A stretch of DNA of 47,221 nt from a virus (lineage: Duplodnaviria; Heunggongvirae; Uroviricota; Caudoviricetes): the IMG/VR virus record IMGVR_UViG_2660238524_000005; one strand, written 5' to 3'. The notes under the pieces are model-generated. The model did no database searches, had not been told where the DNA came from, and saw only the letters and a list, made by a program, of their open reading frames with translations. Position numbers and translations under genes: made by a program. Below are positions 341-47,221 of this stretch, in pieces. The stretch's first letter is position 1; each line of letters begins with the position of its first letter.

Positions 341-350
341 TTGGGATTTT

Positions 351-396
351 TGGTCGGCACGAGAGGATTTGAACCTCCGACCCCCGACACCCCATG
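351..396 (-). tRNA. Partial tRNA-Pro(GGG) (proL-like): 3'-terminal 46 nt from anticodon loop to CCA; phage attachment-site core, not an intact tRNA
   Basis: Reverse complement reads CATGGGGTGTCGGGGGTCGGAGGTTCAAATCCTCTCGTGCCGACCA, matching the 3' half of enterobacterial tRNA-Pro as I recall it; upstream 30 nt cannot form acceptor or D arm (would need CGGCACG at the 5' end). Confidence 0.65.
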
Positions 397-834: not shown

Positions 835-1602
835 ATGCCACAGCCGGCGCTAAAAGCGAACGAAATCAGCAGTGAATTAATCGATATTCTTGCGGCTCGG
901 AATACGATATCCGAAATGCAATATTTTCGTTATATCAGAGATATAGAAAAGTTGCGCGACAGCGCATCTGAGGACTATCTCAAAGCGTTGGCTAATGGTG
1001 CTTTTGGGCGTAAAGATACTGCAGTTGCATTCTTTGAAGAAGCATTGAAGCATAACAACCTGATCATTGCTCAAAATTATGTAGTTTATCTCAACGATTA
1101 CGGCAGCTTCCGTGAAGTTGAACAAGTGGTAAATCGATTAGTTGAACGTTATAACTCCCCTACGATGCTGTCCCATGCATGGGAAGCTAACTTGTTCTTG
1201 GGGCGTATTGACAAAGCGCTCTACTATGCTGAGAGATTGATAAGTATGGTAGATGAAAAGGAGGCTGAATTGGTTAAGCACCTCGCAGCCACAGCACTGG
1301 CCCAATCCACGACCTTCAAAAGTGCAACTGGAATTACTGATGAAGAACTACAGGATATTGCAAACCGCATAGTGGATATCATGGCTGACCATAAAGTTAG
1401 TCCTGTTGCTATGTCTTTCTGCTCTATCCCTGAAGAGCGTACGTCATCATATGTCATGGCAGTTAATACTGAAGATTCTGATGTTCTCTCTGATATGAAC
1501 TTGGATATAGCATTTTCTCTTGCAGAAAATGAAAGTTTGATTGGAAAACCCTTCAGCGTATGGTTTGAAGGGCGTTTGGAGGAACCTGCGCGTGCCAGTT
1601 AA
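835..1602 (+). CDS. Hypothetical protein, first gene of AT-rich two-gene cargo operon
   Basis: 255-aa ORF, SD AAAGGTGA 5 nt upstream of ATG; protein-like composition; no family recognised. Confidence 0.6.
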   Translation: MPQPALKANEISSELIDILAARNTISEMQYFRYIRDIEKLRDSASEDYLKALANGAFGRKDTAVAFFEEALKHNNLIIAQNYVVYLNDYGSFREVEQVVNRLVERYNSPTMLSHAWEANLFLGRIDKALYYAERLISMVDEKEAELVKHLAATALAQSTTFKSATGITDEELQDIANRIVDIMADHKVSPVAMSFCSIPEERTSSYVMAVNTEDSDVLSDMNLDIAFSLAENESLIGKPFSVWFEGRLEEPARAS

Positions 1603-1975
1603 TAGTTCCGATTTTATCGCTTTCGCAAAAGATTGTGAAAAGCGTAACGACGAAATTGGTTACAGAAACGCTGTCGCACGTGCGTATTATGGTGCTTATC
1701 ACCACGTACTTCCGTGTTTGACCATGGGGCCGAAAGAAAGTCACCAAGGCCTCATTGACTATCTTGTTAACGATGCTTGGAAGGGTAACGAACCTTTTGA
1801 AAAAAGAGACTTAATTGGTTTGGGGTATGCTCTTCAATCGCTTAAGGATCAGAGAATAGTTTGTGATTACAGACTTAACGACACTATTACGCCAACCCAA
1901 TCAAGCACCGCGATTAAGACTGCAGAGAAATTAATCCAGCGTTGCGCTAATATGACCAAGTCTAAAGCGTCCTAA
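1594..1975 (+). CDS. Small hypothetical protein with R-x6-H motif (HEPN-like?), translationally coupled to upstream gene
   Basis: GTG start with SD GGAGG 7 nt upstream, overlapping the stop of the 835-1602 ORF; motif RAYYGAYH; ORF track gives 1541..1975 from an upstream TTG. Confidence 0.5.
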
Positions 1976-2400: not shown

Positions 2401-2458
2401 TTTTGTGCCTCCATAATCATATGATTTAAAATGTTATTTTATAAAAAAGGAGTTGTAT

Positions 2459-3415
2459 ATGACCAATTTGTATAAGTTTATGGGAGCGGATATAATTGAT
2501 AAATTGATGATGGATGAAACACATATAGGAATAAAATTCTCTCATTTACATGAATATAATGATCCCTATGAGTTTTTCCTTACTATTGATTTTAATCGCG
2601 GTTCTGATGAGTTAGCATTTTACAATGAAATGATTGGCATGGTTACAAAACAACCAGCAACTTGTTTTACGAAAAGCCCTGTGATACCACCTATGTGGGC
2701 ACATTATGCAGGTAATTCTTCTGGTTTTGTAATAGAGATTAATGAGGAGAAGTTTAAAAAGTATTTGGATGAAATCGGCTTCCAGGATCATAGTTCAATA
2801 GCAGATGTTGAATATAAAGATTCTCCAGATACAGGTATTGAAGACATTCTGGCGAGAGCATTTCATATCTGTAAACCTCGTTATATCTACTGGCTACAAT
2901 CCTGTATAATGACAGCCGCATATTTGACAAAACAAACTTGCTGGAGTTATGAGCAGGAACGTCGCGTAATAATTAATGAGAAAGCACTTACTAAACTGAA
3001 TGACAATCTTATGCTCCTTCCGGTACCGATTAATTGTATAACTGGAGTTATAGTTGGGCACAAATCAAATGATTTATTAAAGCAGAAAATTCAATCTTTA
3101 GCTAAAAAGGCTAAATGTAGATATTTCGAAATGGTAATAGGAAAAACAACAACTACACCATTTCTTTTATCTCAAAATCTCAAATCACACCAATTTATTA
3201 ATGGCAATATAATACCTGCATCAAGGCAATGTAAAAAATGTTATGAGCCTTTAAACATGGAAAATAAAGTTTGTGGCTGGTGTGGAATTACTAATCATGA
3301 TGTGAAAATGGCAGAGTACCGTAATTCATTTCGAATGATAGCCAACTATGGTGGGCTGGATAAATATATATCATCCATGAATAAGATTACTGAAGAGTAT
3401 AATAAGGGTAAATAA
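2459..3415 (+). CDS. DUF2971-family protein with C-terminal CxxC...CxxC zinc-ribbon-like motif
   Basis: LYKF...NDPYEF and PPMWAHYAGNSSGFVIEI motifs characteristic of DUF2971 (from memory); CKKCYEP...CGWCG near C-terminus; SD AGGAG 6 nt before ATG 2459; strongly AT-rich. Confidence 0.65.
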   Translation: MTNLYKFMGADIIDKLMMDETHIGIKFSHLHEYNDPYEFFLTIDFNRGSDELAFYNEMIGMVTKQPATCFTKSPVIPPMWAHYAGNSSGFVIEINEEKFKKYLDEIGFQDHSSIADVEYKDSPDTGIEDILARAFHICKPRYIYWLQSCIMTAAYLTKQTCWSYEQERRVIINEKALTKLNDNLMLLPVPINCITGVIVGHKSNDLLKQKIQSLAKKAKCRYFEMVIGKTTTTPFLLSQNLKSHQFINGNIIPASRQCKKCYEPLNMENKVCGWCGITNHDVKMAEYRNSFRMIANYGGLDKYISSMNKITEEYNKGK

Positions 3416-3552: not shown

Positions 3553-4737
3553 CTAACCGGTTTTAATTTCTCCATGAGGGACAACAATCCAATCTATATG
3601 ATTTTTAGTATAAATTTTAGTAGATTTCGCATCGCTATGTGCCATTCGTCCCTGCGGATCAATCCCTTGTTTATCAAATAGGTGAGCTGCCAAAGCTCTT
3701 ATTTCATGGAATGTAGGTCTTTGTTCCATTGCTAGATGATTGCATAGTCCGAGTTTGTCTCGCACGGAAGAGAATGACCGACTCAAATAATCTGGTGCAA
3801 CTTGAGTTGGGTGCGAAACCTCTTTACTGCGTTTAACATGCCGTTCTGGGATTCTATGAACGACAAAGGGACTGGCCACATTGTCACGGCTATTGTCAAT
3901 TATCCGTTTCAATTCTTCACCAATTGGTATTGCAACATGTGATGCCTCCTTTTTTTGTACTTTTTGCCTATGGATGTATAGTGTACCATATATGCCATTT
4001 TGTGGTTGTTCGAACCAAACACATCCACATAAACCGTCTTTAGGTTCGCGAATTGAGTAACGGATTCGCGATACTTCGAGTCGTGCATGTGTAGTCTGCA
4101 ATGCTAGGTCCATTGCTGTTCTTAACCATGGTGCAGCGGCCTGCCTGATAGCTATAAAATGCTCGAGTGACAGGCGCCGTCTTTTCTTCTCATCAGTCCT
4201 ACGCATTTTTTTTCTGATGGCCGGGTTATCCTGCATTAGTGATTCATCGACCGCATAAGAGAACAACTTTTTAAGAAAGCTGACCTTTCTGTTCTGCACA
4301 TTTGCGGATGCGCTGGCATGATATTTGTTGATGTAGGCATTAACGTGTTCAAGTTCGATATCGCATGCCGGAACATTTACGAAAAACGCTTTTACGCGTA
4401 GAGCGTCATTTTTCCAGTCATCTAAGGTACTCTGGGAAGGTCGTTCGTCTTCGATAATTCTGGCCATTATGTGATCGACATGTTCAGCAAATGGTTTTGC
4501 TTCTCCGGTGACCCCGCCAGATTCTCTAATAAGATTATCCACTGATGGGTATAATTCTGATCGCATCCTCAGGTTGTACTCTCTGGCGATTGCAACGGCT
4601 ATTGCCCGATCCTTACCTATATTTTTCTTTTTTCCGGTAATAAGTGTGAATTTATAAACACCTCGATCTTTATCAAAAACCAGATAATCAGGAAGATGTC
4701 TGTATTCTTTTTTACGTGGCCTTGCCGCCATGGTCAT
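3553..4737 (-). CDS. int: Phage integrase (tyrosine recombinase)
   Basis: 394 aa; C-terminal catalytic region with conserved H-x-x-R and terminal Tyr context (...HEIRALAAHLF...AHSDAKSTKIYTK); adjacent to att core and overlapped by xis. Confidence 0.9.
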   Translation of the reverse strand: MTMAARPRKKEYRHLPDYLVFDKDRGVYKFTLITGKKKNIGKDRAIAVAIAREYNLRMRSELYPSVDNLIRESGGVTGEAKPFAEHVDHIMARIIEDERPSQSTLDDWKNDALRVKAFFVNVPACDIELEHVNAYINKYHASASANVQNRKVSFLKKLFSYAVDESLMQDNPAIRKKMRRTDEKKRRRLSLEHFIAIRQAAAPWLRTAMDLALQTTHARLEVSRIRYSIREPKDGLCGCVWFEQPQNGIYGTLYIHRQKVQKKEASHVAIPIGEELKRIIDNSRDNVASPFVVHRIPERHVKRSKEVSHPTQVAPDYLSRSFSSVRDKLGLCNHLAMEQRPTFHEIRALAAHLFDKQGIDPQGRMAHSDAKSTKIYTKNHIDWIVVPHGEIKTG

Positions 4738-41104: not shown

Positions 41105-44100
41105 ATGGCAGTAAAAATTTCAGGTGTACTGAAAGACGGCACAGGAAAACCGGTACAGAACTGCACAATCCAGCTGAAAGCAAAACGTAACAGTACCACG
41201 GTGGTGGTGAACACGCTGGCATCTGAAAATCCGGATGAAGCCGGGCGTTACAGTATGGACGTTGAGTACGGTCAGTACAGCGTTATTCTGTTGGTGGAAG
41301 GATTCCCGCCGTCACATGCCGGGACCATCACAGTGTATGAAGATTCCCGACCCGGTACGCTGAATGATTTTCTCGGTGCCATGACGGAGGATGATGCCCG
41401 TCCGGAGGCACTGCGCCGTTTTGAGCTGATGGTGGAAGAGGTGGCGCGTAACGCGTCCGTGGTGGCACAGAACACGGCAGCCGCGAAGAAGTCAGCCAGT
41501 GATGCCAGCACATCAGCCCGTGAGGCGGCAACCCATGCGACTGATGCTGCAGGCTCAGCACGCGCAGCCAGCACGTCAGCCGGACAGGCCGCGTCGTCGG
41601 CTCAGTCAGCGACTTCCAGCGCAGGAACGGCATCAACAAAGGCTACTGAAGCATCAAAAAGTGCTGCCGCTGCAGAGTCCTCAAAAAGCGCGGCAGCTAC
41701 CAGTGCCAGTGCCGCGAAAACGTCAGAAACGAATGCTGCAGCGTCACAACAATCAGCAGCCACTTCTGCATCCACCGCAACTACGAAAGCGTCAGAAGCT
41801 GCCACCTCAGCCCGGGATGCGGCGGCTTCAAAAGAGGCGGCAAAATCATCAGAAACGAACGCATCCTCGAGCGCCAGTAACGCAGCTTCCTCGGCAACAG
41901 CGGCAGGAAATTCCGCGAAGGCGGCAAAAACGTCAGAGACGAACGCCAGGTCTTCTGAAACGGCAGCGGGACAGAGCGCCTCGGCTGCGGCAGGCTCAAA
42001 AACAGCGGCTGCGTCGTCTGCCAGTGCAGCGTCAACAAGTGCCGGGCAGGCCTCAGCCAGTGCCACCGCCGCCGGAAAATCGGCAGAAAGCGCCGCATCG
42101 TCTGCTTCAACAGCCACAACGAAGGCTGACGAAGCCACTGAACAGGCCAGCGCAGCAGCGAGGTCTGCTTCCGCAGCGAAGACATCCGAAACGAACGCGA
42201 AAGCGTCGGAAACCAGCGCAGAATCCTCAAAAACGGCTGCCGCATCGTCAGCCAGTTCGGCGTCGTCATCGGCATCATCTGCGTCTGCTTCAAAAGATGA
42301 GGCGACCAGACAGGCGTCAGCAGCGAAGAGCAGCGCCACGACGGCATCCACGAAGGCAACAGAGGCGGCAGGCAGTGCGACGGCAGCATCTCAGAGCAAA
42401 ACTACTGCTGAATCCGCTGCGACCCGTGCGGAAGCTGCTGCTGATCGTGCTGAAGAGATTGCCGGTGCAGTTGCGATGGAAGACGCAAGCCTTACAACTA
42501 AAGGTGTTGTGAAACTTAGCAGTGCTGTTGATAGCACCAGTGAATCGCTGGCCGCAACGCCAAAAGCAGTTAAAGCAGCCAATGACAATGCGAATAGCAG
42601 GGTGCCATCTAACCGAAAAGTTAACGGAAAAGCACTGACTGCGGATATAACATTAACGCCGAAAGATATTGGTACTTTAAATTCAGTAACGATGTCTTTC
42701 TCTGGCGGGGCTGGGTGGTTCAAACTGGCTACGGTTACCATGCCACAAGCGAGTTCCATCGTTTACATCGCATTGATTGGTGGCGCTGGTTACAACGTCG
42801 GTTCCCCACATCAGGCAGGCATTTCAGAACTGGTTCTACGAGCAGGCAATGGAAACCCCAAAGGAATTACCGGGGCTTTGTGGAAGCGTACAGCCGTCGG
42901 ATTAACGAATTTCGCCTGGATCAACACATCCGGCGATACATATGATATTTACGTTGAGATTGGCAATTATGCGACGAGTGTAAATATCCATTGGGATTGT
43001 ACTGCAAATGCGTCAGTTTCTGTTTATACCTCGCCAACATATTCAGCGAGTAAGCCTTCCAGCGTTACCTATGGTGTTGTTTATACGATGTATAGCTCAC
43101 ATCAGAAACCTACACCATCAGATATTGGAGCACTGCCAACAACCGGAGGAACAGTTTCAGGTCCGTTGTCTGTTACAGGTGGATTAACTGGTTCATTGAA
43201 TGGTAATGCAAGTACAGCCACGAAATTGCAGACGGCAAGATCTATCGGTGGAGTTGTTTTCGACGGTTCTGCAAATATTAACCTTCCAGGTGTAAACACT
43301 ACGGGTAATCAGAACACCACTGGTAATGCTGCAACTGCTACAAAACTTCAGACTGCAAGAAAAATATCCGGTGTTCCATTTGATGGTTCTACTGATATCA
43401 CTTTAACCGCCGCGCATGTGGCTGCTTTTGCCAGAAGGGCAACGGATACATATGCCGATGCGGATGGGGGCGTTCCCTGGAATGCCGAATCAGGCGCTTA
43501 TAAGGTCACCCGCTCTGGCGACAGCTATATTCTGGTTAACTTCTATACCGGAGTCGGAAGTTGCCGGACCTTGCAGATGAAGGCGCATTACAGAAATGGT
43601 GGTCTGTTCTACCGTTCTTCAAGAGACGGTTATGGTTTTGAGGAAGACTGGGCAGAAGTTTATACCTCGAAAAATCTTCCACCAGAAAGCTACCCAGTCG
43701 GCGCACCAATCCCGTGGCCATCAGATACCGTTCCGTCTGGTTATGCCCTGATGCAGGGGCAGACTTTTGACAAATCTGCCTACCCGAAACTTGCAGCCGC
43801 TTATCCGTCAGGCGTGATCCCTGATATGCGTGGCTGGACGATTAAGGGCAAGCCCGCCAGTGGTCGTGCCGTATTGTCTCAGGAACAGGACGGCATAAAA
43901 TCGCATACCCACAGCGCCAGCGCATCCAGTACTGATTTGGGGACGAAAACCACATCGTCGTTTGATTACGGCACTAAATCCACGAATAACACTGGTGCGC
44001 ATACCCATAGTGTTAGCGGTACGGCTGCTTCAGCCGGTGCACATACCCATTCGATGACATTTGTTTCAGGTGGTTCCAGTGGTGCTCCGGGAAGTGGATC

Positions 44101-44332
44101 ACCTGATTATTCTAAATACAGTGTTAACACTTCTTCTGCAGGCGCTCATACGCACTCTGTATCGGGTACTGCTGCAAGCGCAGGTGCACACGCACATACT
44201 GTAGGTATTGGTGCGCATACGCACTCGGTTGCGATTGGTTCACATGGACACACCATCACCGTTAACGCTGCTGGTAACGCGGAAAACACCGTCAAAAACA
44301 TCGCATTTAACTATATTGTGAGGCTTGCATAA
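41105..44332 (+). CDS. stf: Side tail fiber protein (Stf-like), intact
   Basis: N-terminus [26 protein letters not shown] and C-terminus ...[19 protein letters not shown] match lambda Stf from memory; Ala/Ser/Thr-rich shaft with repeated KTSETNA units; C-terminal GAHTHS/HxH repeats. Confidence 0.8.
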
Positions 44333-44916
44333 TGGCATTCAGAATGAGTGAACAAGCACGGACCATAAAAATTTATAATCTGCTGTCCGGAACTAATGAA
44401 TTTATTGGTGAAGGTGATGCATATATTCCGCCTCATACAGGTCTGCCAGCAAACAGTACCGACATTGCACCGCCAGATATTCCAGCTGGCTTCGTGGCTG
44501 TTTTCAACAGTGATGAGTTATCGTGGCATCTCGTTGAAGATCATCGGGGTAAAACGGTTTATGACGTGGCTTCCGGCGACGCGTTATTTATTTCTGAACT
44601 CGGTCCGTTACCGGAAAATGTCACCTGGTTATCCCCGGAAGGGGAGTTTCAGAAGTGGAACGGCACAGCCTGGGTGAAAGATGCAGAAGCAGAAAAACTG
44701 TTCCGGATCCGGGAGGCGGAAGAAACAAAAAACAGCCTGATGCAGGCAGCGAATGAGCATATTGCGCCACTTCAGGATGCTGTAGATCTGGAAATCGCAA
44801 CGGAGGAAGAAAACTCGTTGCTGGAAGCCTGGAAAAAGTATCGGGTGTTGCTGAACCGTGTTGATACATCAGTAGCACCGGATATTGAGTGGCCTGCTGT
44901 CCCTGTTATGGAGTAA
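44332..44916 (+). CDS. tfa: Tail fiber assembly protein (Tfa)
   Basis: 194 aa; MAFRMSEQ...[10 protein letters not shown] closely resembles lambda Tfa (from memory). Confidence 0.85.
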
Positions 44917-45019: not shown

Positions 45020-45822
45020 TTAAGCATCACGTATTGCCAACCTGATTTTTGACTGATACCAATTGGGGCCTTCTGCAATTATTTCTTCCTCAACATGCAT
45101 GATGGGATGCATTTCAATTTCAGAGTTTTTGACTTTTAGATCTAGTCCATATTTTTTTGAAATTTGTAAAACTTCATTTTTGAAATCCTTATCTGCGAAA
45201 GGTGAAATCCTTATTTCTTCCAACAGATTATTAAGAGATACAGGGACTAGTTTTCCCTTTACAGGTGGAGTGTTAAAGGTATTCTCTTGAAAAATAGCTC
45301 TAAACTCTTTTTCGTGTTCGAAAGATGGTCTCTTGTTAAAGAATACATCTGATTCTGGATTGTATTGTTTTATCCAGAAATTTTTGACGTATTTTACGTG
45401 TTTTAATTGTAGTTTGTTTAGATTATTATTTTCAAGTTGGCTTTGGAGGTTTTTTTCTTTGATTTTATGACAACGCCTTTAGCGGGGTTTTTACAATACA
45501 GCTTCCACATAGCTTCAGATTCATGTTCGTTACAATGCCAGCAACTTATATATGTCCTCTCGCTTATTTCCTTAAGTGTCTTTAAATTGAATGCCATGAA
45601 AGGCTCTAAGTCCATGCCGGCACCATGAGTAGCGCATAGTTTTTCCTGTGTCTCAATGAATTTTTTATAGCCAGTATGTCCCCAAGCAAATTCACCTTCG
45701 AACGGATCTTCAAAATTTTTTGCTGAGCAAAAAAATAAAGCATTTTGTTCGAGTAACATAGAGAATTTCTCTATGTCAAGATATCGCCATATATACTCAG
45801 TGTGCATGATAGCTCCTTGCAA
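45020..45822 (-). pseudogene. DUF2971-family gene disrupted by a frameshift at an A7 homopolymer (or needing a -1 shift)
   Basis: N-terminal 134-aa ORF has DUF2971 motifs (LFFCSAKNFEDPFEG; SEAMWKLY...KGVVIKS) and stops after the A7 run (plus-strand T7 at 45450-45456); the -1 frame is open through both segments down to 45020. Confidence 0.55.
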
Positions 45823-46018
45823 TATAACTATTTCTATCTGTTCATTTGTACTTAAAAAGGATTGAGTAGCCCGAACAGTTCTATCCGTAAATATACCAGA
45901 TAGAAGAGTTGTACAATAACAAATCCTCCGTATAAGAACCAGCCATAATAGTCTGGTTCTTAAGGTTTTTTTGTTCGAGGGGTTTTAACCTACGATTCGT
46001 CCCCATATCGGCGATAAA

Positions 46019-47221
46019 TTAGGCTTGTACCAACGCTTCTGTTTCTGTGAGTGAAATCTGATAGCGTTTTACTGCCTCAGCAAAGGCGTGCGCGGCATCT
46101 GCATTTGATACCATATATTCTTCAGTTACCCCTGTTTGAGAATGGAAAGTAATATTTCCATAAATGCAAATAGGGATTTGGTAGTTGTCTTTAAAACGAC
46201 GGTCTGGTGAGCCATTCTTATTCGTTTTCGCCCATGTATAACCATCTATGCGTGAGTCACTGGGAACACCTTCTTCCTCATGGAATCTTAGATATTCTGA
46301 ACTAATTTGTAATTCGCGTAAATCAATCAGAGCGAATGCTCCATCGGCTCGTGGTATGACTGCAACTCCAGGATAAAGCAAAATATCGTCTCCATTTGCA
46401 TTTTCAAACCTCATCGCACGCCCTGTAAATTGAATGAGATCCGTTGAACTAAAATCAAAGGTAACTGGGTGACGATTAACAGACCGGGTTGCTAATGTTC
46501 TTTCAGCAAACTGGTCTGTAGCTTTATCTGCAGTAATATCCCATTTTTTGACACTCGATTTTAACATATCAAATGCATGGACCATCGCTGCATATGCGCG
46601 CTGTGAAGCATCACTGCTCTCGAATGTTATGGCTATTTTTGTGCTGTCTTCCCATGAAACTAGGCGAGATATCTCAGCTTGGGTTAGGGGGAGTAGTGTC
46701 TCAAGTTCTGCGATGCGTCGTTTGTAAAACCAACGGAATAGACTTGATTTGCGTCGAGCCAGCTCGCTTTTTTGTTTTGATTCTTCGGCAAGAGCCTCTT
46801 GAAGATCTGCTTTTATCTCTGCTCTTTGTTCTCGTGCTTTAGCAATCAAATCTCGTAAAGGTAAAAGGGAGGTACTTGTAAGGACTTCTACCGAAGCGCT
46901 GGATATTTCATTCATGCCAGCTACAGGCATATATATTTTAGCGTTCGATGGTGTGTTTTCTGGAGATGACCCAGACCCCAAATGAGGTTCTGTAGGGGCT
47001 GGATTTAATGGATTGGTAACTGAGTATCCATCATCATAGGGCAAGGTAGGTGTAGTATAAGATAAGCCTGTGCCCGGTAATCCGACAGTTGCTCTAACCC
47101 CTTTTTTACCAACATTGACAGTTGCGCCAGGCATGCCAATGCTTGCACTTATTCCACGCTTGCCAATGTTGAGTCGAACGCCAGGAAATAAAGTAAAGGT
47201 TTGTCTGAAACGAAGAGACAT
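46019..47221 (-). CDS. DUF4236-domain protein (N-terminal Gly/Lys-rich repeat domain + about 340-aa unknown C-terminal domain); start at window edge
   Basis: N-terminus MSLRFRQTFTLFPGVRLNIGKRGISASIGMPGATVNVGKKGVRATVGLPGTGLSY matches DUF4236 (from memory); ATG is the last codon of the window, so the true start may lie outside. Confidence 0.5.
   Translation of the reverse strand: MSLRFRQTFTLFPGVRLNIGKRGISASIGMPGATVNVGKKGVRATVGLPGTGLSYTTPTLPYDDGYSVTNPLNPAPTEPHLGSGSSPENTPSNAKIYMPVAGMNEISSASVEVLTSTSLLPLRDLIAKAREQRAEIKADLQEALAEESKQKSELARRKSSLFRWFYKRRIAELETLLPLTQAEISRLVSWEDSTKIAITFESSDASQRAYAAMVHAFDMLKSSVKKWDITADKATDQFAERTLATRSVNRHPVTFDFSSTDLIQFTGRAMRFENANGDDILLYPGVAVIPRADGAFALIDLRELQISSEYLRFHEEEGVPSDSRIDGYTWAKTNKNGSPDRRFKDNYQIPICIYGNITFHSQTGVTEEYMVSNADAAHAFAEAVKRYQISLTETEALVQA

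Follow-up and report, generated by a model that had tools for sequence, protein, structure and literature searches.

The stretch of DNA analysed here (hereafter the window) comprises 47,221 nucleotides of the IMG/VR virus record IMGVR_UViG_2660238524_000005 (Caudoviricetes), and the subject of this work is the gene at its right end, a coding sequence (CDS) for a DUF4236-domain protein at positions 46019-47221 of the minus strand. The open reading frame (ORF) has 400 codons; its TAA stop codon lies at 46021-46019 and its ATG at 47221-47219, i.e. the start codon is formed by the last three bases of the window. A preliminary description of the window had considered that the true start might lie beyond this edge, but the window turned out to end exactly on the true ATG. 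This DNA is 100% identical (megablast) to a region of the E. coli O25b:H4 genome NZ_CP015085.1, where the twin of the gene is annotated as a complete CDS (WP_001351450.1, 'DUF4236 domain-containing protein'). In that genome an in-frame stop codon is found 15 codons 5' of the ATG, beyond the window end, with no start codon in between, and a purine-rich AGGGA lies about 10 nt 5' of the ATG; the same initiator Met is shared by 37 of 37 aligned homologues. Therefore, the gene is not cut by the window, and the promoter alone lies outside. The extended sequence likewise bore out that the ORF is not a part of a larger gene. The ORF is no product of chance, as the exact protein falls in a cluster of 376 sequences, and RefSeq already annotates the gene by the name of its domain. 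The DUF4236 gene is real, complete and intact, and it is under purifying selection, with a ratio of nonsynonymous to synonymous substitution rates (dN/dS) of 0.12 between E. coli and Klebsiella and of 0.09 between Paracoccus and Phaeobacter.

The gene follows, in this order, the tail-fibre gene (41099-44332), tfa (44332-44916, Pfam Caudo_TAP), a frameshifted DUF2971 gene and a tRNA-Pro-like remnant, and it is transcribed from the strand opposite to tfa. Past the window end there are a dinI-like gene, which is frameshifted and has a LexA-like box, an intact tRNA-Pro gene (proL) and yejM. At the other end of the window, the 3' end of tRNA-Pro is repeated exactly over 54 bp (343-396, minus strand); this repeat is followed by K-12-type downstream sequence and marks the distal boundary of the insertion, as determined by a k-mer match to proL and by alignment with the empty K-12 site. 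Relative to K-12, about 47.6 kb has been inserted, and the DUF4236 gene lies inside the attachment (att) repeats, between tfa and the tRNA-Pro att site, in the position of the lambda b-region. This agrees with its earlier portrayal as AT-rich, minus-strand cargo located after tfa: its guanine-plus-cytosine (GC) content is 43.1% (30.7% at third codon positions, GC3), whereas that of the window is 49.8% and that of the tail-fibre gene 52.8%. An Rfam scan of the region returned only the real tRNA-Pro. The block from tfa to the DUF4236 gene is covered to at least 80% in 122 of 5,426 complete E. coli genomes, and the gene itself is carried by 122-147 of them (about 2-3%); in the four genomes that were inspected the block is located at proL, beside prophages with differing tail fibres or states of decay. 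Homology to sequenced lambdoid phages ends just after tfa, and none of the 50,697 records of a phage collection carries either the region beyond tfa or the integrase of this prophage. By its position and composition, the DUF4236 gene is a stand-alone accessory gene, a 'moron', of the lambda-like prophage at proL, which carries it in an arm resembling the b-region.

The anatomy of the protein was derived from 37 full-length homologues, a 150-sequence alignment and two AlphaFold models. The N-terminal head (residues 3-56, window positions 47054-47215) is indeed the DUF4236 domain that had been recognized by eye: it matches PF14020 over positions 1-55 of the 55 in the model (74.9 bits, cut-off 27; E = 7e-21), and accounts for about 14% of the protein. 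The head is basic and Gly-rich (10 Gly, 8 Lys plus Arg and no acidic residues between positions 3 and 56, net charge +8), and consists of short amphipathic beta-strands that recur every 9-11 residues or so, with Gly turns between them; the full-length model contains six short strands, with a predicted local distance difference test (pLDDT) score of 35-46. It is followed by a variable Pro/Ser-rich linker (approximately residues 57-95, 46937-47053; 8 Pro and 9 Ser plus Thr in 38 residues), which corresponds to gap-rich, poorly conserved columns in the alignment of the 37 homologues and is modelled with pLDDT below 50. Then comes a segment conserved in three alignments, 'EIxSAxxxxLTS', leading into a long helical hairpin (residues 96-194, 46640-46936), whose helices span residues 116-159 and 163-193 in the full-length model. 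The remainder (residues 195-400, 46022-46639) forms an alpha/beta domain composed of a beta-sandwich with a C-terminal helix cap, for which Pfam has no model. Residues 190-400, modelled alone with a deep alignment, yielded a pLDDT of 94.3 and a predicted template modelling score of 0.89, and the sandwich so predicted appears only weakly PH/PTB-like. Residues W227, R241, W330, N334, D340, R342, N346, G364 and S372 are invariant in the family, and the best-conserved stretch is TWAKTNKDGSPDRRF.

The approximately 340 residues that follow the head had been left unassigned in the preliminary description, and so they remain. Residues 95-400 gave no match to Pfam even at E<=10, the whole protein matched no NCBIfam model and no family of PADLOC-DB v2.0.0 at E<=1, and sequence searches of the PDB with profiles of the full protein or of the C-terminal module returned nothing; thus, the profile and fold searches assigned no mundane function. 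The one end-to-end match is to PHROG 17982 (E = 3.2e-193, residues 1-400 against profile positions 1-390 of 390). In the literature searched, DUF4236 is named by one paper, in passing and for a Salmonella prophage remnant, and the protein accession, the InterPro identifier and the PHROG identifier appear nowhere; the literature matches to 'PF14020' proved to be Plasmodium gene identifiers and not DUF4236.

Together, the helical hairpin and the beta-sandwich constitute a large family without a Pfam model. A HMMER search with residues 95-400 retrieved 2,908 cluster representatives (at 50% identity) with E<=1e-3, among them 401 with E<=1e-30. The strict motif was found in 248 of 185,579 species representatives (one genome per species), distributed among Alpha-, Beta- and Gammaproteobacteria, Acidobacteriota, Verrucomicrobiota, Bacteroidota, Gemmatimonadota, Nitrospirota, Planctomycetota and others. 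The Klebsiella orthologue is 93% identical to the E. coli protein, which in turn is 65-69% identical, over its full length, to the proteins of Paracoccus, Phaeobacter and Sedimentitalea. Three architectures can be distinguished: a short form of about 400 residues, as in the window, a headless form of about 290-300 residues that starts at the EIxSA motif (some of these may be miscalled starts), and a long form with a C-terminal extension of at least 60 residues, found in 67 of 149 sampled relatives (about 45%). In at least 36 of the 67 extended relatives a transmembrane-like segment occurs 20-40 residues past the domain, and 33 of them contain an SH3_3 domain and three a PG_binding_1 domain. 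As the long forms have no signal peptide, their N-terminal 400 or so residues would be cytoplasmic, and the SH3b or peptidoglycan-binding domain would be periplasmic. The E. coli protein lacks a membrane segment (the maximum Kyte-Doolittle mean over 19 residues is 1.34) as well as a signal peptide, and should be cytoplasmic.

The head also leads a life of its own. In phages, including virulent and jumbo phages, DUF4236 heads are widespread and fused to other tails; in Klebsiella phage RCIP0034 (L017 3501-3818, 106 residues) and in Acinetobacter phage Ab11510-phi (L018 3501-3824, 108 residues) the head is joined by a short charged linker to a C-terminal transmembrane helix. The RCIP0034 gene lies on the strand opposite to its flanking genes, all of which are annotated as hypothetical. 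Full-length homologues occur in Microcystis phages, directly after the gene for the large terminase subunit.

Comparison of the E. coli and Klebsiella loci delimits the unit in which the gene is inherited. The two DNAs are 88.5% identical from 146 nt 5' of the ATG to about 88 nt 3' of the stop codon, i.e. to approximately position 45931 of the window, and their flanks differ: the frameshifted dinI-like and DUF2971 genes in E. coli vs ssrA (encoding the transfer-messenger RNA, tmRNA) and a convergent tail-spike gene in Klebsiella. The gene behaves as a self-contained cassette, which takes along about 146 nt on its 5' side and about 90 nt on its 3' side. The conserved upstream block contains a promoter-like TTCACC-16-TATCAT, identified by match to the consensus only, and a hairpin lies downstream of the stop codon, without a clean T run in this window. 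Directly 3' of the stop codon, alignment to the 3' half of proL revealed a degenerate tRNA-Pro 3' half together with the hairpin (45931-46008, minus strand), which we regard as debris of an att core and possibly a terminator; the tRNA-Pro pattern matches at 45937-45964, where none would be expected by chance. In Klebsiella, a perfect 51-nt tRNA-Pro 3' half with a hairpin is located directly 3' of the stop codon, though the locus is at ssrA; a tmRNA remnant, searched for downstream of the Klebsiella gene, was not found, the remnant there being that of tRNA-Pro. In Klebsiella (L004 9219-9351), the remnant continues into roughly another 80 nt that correspond to what lies downstream of proL in E. 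coli. Conversely, a degenerate ssrA 3' end lies about 145-180 nt 5' of the E. coli ATG, outside the window (L001 10467-10503). The arrangement in Klebsiella, an intact ssrA followed by the cassette, differs from that of E. coli by about 130 bp carrying a strong terminator, which suggests that a block adjacent to ssrA was the source of the one in E. coli. The att-core debris records exchange between prophages integrating at ssrA and at tRNA-Pro. Further upstream in E. coli, a LexA-type box, CTGT-N8-ACAG (L001 10901-10916), precedes the frameshifted dinI-like gene (L001 10602-10857), and SOS-induced read-through into the cassette is conceivable.

The DUF4236 gene is intact and identical where both of its neighbours, the dinI-like and the DUF2971 gene, are frameshifted, and in other lineages it occurs with hardly any company. 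An islet of 1.6-1.7 kb, bounded by direct repeats (17-21 nt) of the tRNA-Glu 3' end, contains it as the sole ORF of more than 100 codons in Paracoccus and in a related metagenome-assembled genome (L002 7724-7740 and 9456-9472; L025 2548-2568 and 4155-4175), and in a member of Chitinophagaceae it resides in a 3.2-kb islet between repeats of the tRNA-Gln 3' end (L102 1996-2010 and 5217-5235). No integrase is encoded inside these tRNA-Glu and tRNA-Gln islets, which could be either minimal remnants or non-autonomous att-flanked cassettes. Adjacency to tRNA genes was considered as a general rule and rejected, as a tRNA gene was found within 6 kb in only 13 of 80 loci. The GC content of the gene is below that of its flanks in four of the five other hosts checked. 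Evidently, the cassette has been located where prophage and chromosome join, in elements with different tRNA-type integration sites, and it tends to outlive the rest of the element. A further conceivable reading is that the gene endures at tRNA genes in the form of a minimal att-flanked cassette, moved or retained by the integrases of other elements.

The preliminary description had also suggested that the gene forms a unit with the adjacent DUF2971 gene (45020-45759, minus strand). In the window this neighbour is a pseudogene, split into an N-terminal ORF at 45418-45822 (annotated as 45418-45759) and a separate ORF in another frame at 45020-45223 by the loss of one nucleotide from a T8 run at about 45449. 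In many E. coli strains it is intact at 246 codons, and its product matches PDC-S31, a candidate listed by PADLOC, as well as Pfam DUF2971. Each of the 122 E. coli genomes with the block has the two genes side by side and in the same orientation, and in Janthinobacterium a DUF2971 gene lies 2 kb from a long-form relative. A two-gene system is nonetheless largely refuted and in our opinion hardly credible. The DUF2971 gene is frameshifted in the window and in many of the listed genomes while the DUF4236 gene stays identical, and the spacer of about 260 bp (measured to the DUF2971 start annotated in other E. coli) holds the tRNA-Pro remnant and the hairpin, so that an att-core remnant separates the two. 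DUF2971 is absent beside the genes of Klebsiella, Paracoccus, Phaeobacter, Aeromonas and Terrimonas, and the proposed test of co-occurrence placed it near a family member at just two of 98 other loci. Moreover, PDC-S31 is catalogued as a single-gene candidate, and we found no conserved partner of any kind: no Pfam family recurred more than twice among 141 neighbouring ORFs from 24 loci. The functional unit with DUF2971 is therefore rejected, because the neighbour has decayed here while the DUF4236 gene is intact, and because it is missing beside the orthologues.

Other parts of the window can be described briefly. At its left end there is a second, different DUF2971 gene (2453-3415, plus strand), which is intact (320 codons) and also matches PDC-S31. 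It is located in the 3.1 kb or so between the integrase gene (3553-4737) and the repeat at 343-396, together with a recombinase fragment and two ORFs. The first of these (835-1602, plus strand, 255 codons) has weak TPR matches below the Pfam cut-offs, including one to TPR-S (a 'sensor' TPR), and the second, which overlaps it (1541-1975, plus strand, 144 codons), has no match; RefSeq annotates both as hypothetical proteins of the opposite strand, so that both ORF calls may be wrong. The recombinase pseudogene adjoins these ORFs, and this part of the window appears to be what is left of an older island. Towards the right, the side tail-fibre protein (41099-44332, plus strand, 1,077 residues) contains an Ala/Ser/Thr-rich low-complexity stretch of about 400 residues, which yields long spurious ORFs in the other frames of both strands. 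In related prophages found at this site in E. coli, other tail-fibre genes precede the same right-end block.

In E. coli and in Klebsiella the gene is situated at the end of a prophage, but the surroundings of the relatives are mixed. The long form of Janthinobacterium lies in a prophage-like region, and that of Bosea adjoins Lamassu-like genes, IS66 and QueC. At the Azospirillum locus (L024 968-7746), the long form begins 12 nt after a gene for a 1,673-residue superfamily 1 (SF1) helicase-DUF559 protein (MTES_1575), with which it may form an operon, and genes for HEPN (pEK499_p136), HNH and Cap4-nuclease proteins are found nearby. In the 24-locus survey, strong single matches were obtained to PifA, SoFic, AbiLi, ThsB (the TIR protein of Thoeris) and AriA, and also to phage tail genes and many housekeeping genes; as the ORFs of the GC-rich genomes were called crudely and a matched random-gene control was lacking, the defence neighbours in this survey are suggestive only. 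Altogether, these contexts suggest that the family belongs to a mobile, conflict-associated gene pool.

What could such a protein do? We tentatively favour the view that the gene is expressed in the lysogen and benefits the host, probably by excluding or aborting the infection by other phages at the envelope. In favour of it are the location of the gene at prophage ends, the homologues in Microcystis phages, the defence genes next to long forms and in the neighbour survey, and the fact that the E. coli neighbour DUF2971 is a PADLOC defence candidate in its own right. The product would act at the cytoplasmic face of the inner membrane; we place the module there because many relatives combine it with a transmembrane segment and an SH3b or peptidoglycan-binding domain, and because the small phage proteins with this head are tail-anchored. 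The basic DUF4236 head would serve either to associate with the membrane or to self-assemble, and a ligand or a partner would be bound by the C-terminal domain through its conserved polar face. A more specific version, on which we would rely with considerable doubt, is that the head and the module with the helical hairpin together represent a new and widespread system of a single gene, by which phage exclusion or abortive infection is coupled to the cell envelope; the long forms would sense the wall through their SH3b or peptidoglycan-binding domains, and the short prophage form would be recruited to the membrane by its head, which may self-assemble.

Several points weigh against the exclusion hypothesis. 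The literature searched offers nothing on the protein beyond the passing mention of the domain name; nor does any PADLOC model match the protein. Defence proteins tend to evolve fast, and the conservation of this family across phyla is very high, unlike theirs. Many relatives are located among housekeeping genes with no defence gene near, and the rate of PADLOC-positive neighbours lacks a random-gene control. The E. coli protein has no membrane segment, so its proximity to the membrane is extrapolated from the relatives, and the head, to which membrane recruitment is ascribed, is modelled with low confidence. Finally, promoter-type matches in the region are no commoner than in shuffled sequence.

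Some of these points lend themselves to a different interpretation, according to which the protein is an envelope-linked accessory of a fitness or housekeeping-like kind, a cytoplasmic scaffold coupled to the wall or to the membrane, whose gene phages would carry for lysogenic conversion and many chromosomes would have domesticated. The long forms with a transmembrane segment and SH3b or PG_binding_1 domains are in line with it, as are the many copies that stand solitary among housekeeping genes, and strong purifying selection combined with cross-phylum conservation is easier to reconcile with a conserved target in the cell than with an arms race; in Alphaproteobacteria the GC3 of the gene is largely adapted, which implies long residence. 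On the other hand, a domesticated gene sits poorly with so patchy a distribution (248 of 185,579 species representatives and 122-147 of 5,426 E. coli genomes), with a GC content under that of the flanks in four of five other hosts, with the location of the gene at att sites and in prophages, and with the frequency of defence genes as neighbours, so we consider this interpretation rather unlikely. It is also imaginable that the protein serves the phage and not the lysogen, in a membrane function of the phage life cycle such as the timing of lysis, the entry or exit of DNA, or assembly. The position of the Microcystis phage homologues directly after the large terminase gene, the presence of DUF4236 heads in many virulent and jumbo phages, and the fusion of the two phage heads checked to a C-terminal transmembrane helix, reminiscent of small lysis or exclusion proteins, all fit such a role. 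Yet the gene stays intact beside a decayed prophage and in single-gene islets devoid of phage genes, it points towards the late operon, preceded by an upstream region of its own, and no lambdoid phage among the 50,697 records carries it; a role in the life cycle thus seems unlikely to us.

One may also ask whether the gene needs to benefit anyone but itself, i.e. whether it is a toxic or addictive gene, or a non-autonomous att-flanked cassette mobilized in trans by the integrases of tRNA-site elements. Selfish retention would account for the att-core sequences on both sides of the gene in E. coli and Klebsiella, for the 15-21-nt tRNA 3'-end repeats that bound islets of 1.6-3.2 kb at three loci in two or three lineages, and for the composition of these islets, which are without an integrase and two of which, at tRNA-Glu, have the family gene as their sole ORF above 100 codons. 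However, the cores that flank the enterobacterial gene differ (ssrA vs tRNA-Pro), so junction debris explains them better, and tRNA genes lie within 6 kb of too few family loci (13 of 80) for mobilization at such sites to be general. Neither an antitoxin-like partner nor a toxin-like fold is apparent, and purifying selection over the full length of the protein argues for a function; selfishness as the whole explanation is in our opinion improbable. Exclusion of other phages at the envelope remains our working, if tentative, reading.

If this reading is true, it adds to the known repertoire a defence or exclusion family that the current catalogues miss, with thousands of members in many phyla. 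Of the complete E. coli genomes, about 2-3% already have a member of the family, among them that of an O25b:H4 clinical isolate with exactly this sequence. Regardless of the role, the analysis defines a 300-residue domain family without a Pfam model and ties the DUF4236 head to the inner membrane. What is new here is the recognition of the C-terminal module as a family, its link to the envelope, the boundaries of the cassette with the att-core debris, and the rejection of the pairing with DUF2971.

It is instructive to compare the family with systems that have been described before. Pfam DUF4236 and PHROG 17982 are both matched over the full length of their models, but they are catalogue entries without a known function, and the Pfam model leaves the conserved 300-residue C-terminal module uncovered. 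The resemblance of the C-terminal domain to PH/PTB-like domains, including those of bacterial PH-domain proteins (PDB 3b77), is weak. Among the defence proteins coupled to the envelope, those of the Zorya ZorA/ZorB type connect a periplasmic domain that binds peptidoglycan with a coiled coil in the cytoplasm. The long forms of our family are predicted to be built in a similar manner, with a coiled-coil module in the cytoplasm linked through one membrane helix to an SH3b or peptidoglycan-binding domain in the periplasm, and they are often found in defence islands; however, there is no homology, the long form is a single polypeptide and not a motor complex with nuclease partners, and the E. coli form is devoid of both the membrane and the periplasmic part. 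Closer parallels in genomic organization are found in the morons of phages and in the cargo of the lambda b-region (lom, bor and cor-type exclusion genes), which occupies the same kind of non-essential site between the tail-fibre genes and the attachment site. Like a moron, the DUF4236 gene is directed opposite to the late operon, departs from its surroundings in GC content and is distributed patchily among related prophages; the conserved block on its 5' side and the hairpin on its 3' side may provide it with a promoter and a terminator of its own. It differs from the characterized morons in that its product has no relation to theirs in sequence or fold; and, unlike them, the DUF4236 cassette is found also far outside phages, as single-gene islets in the chromosomes of bacteria.

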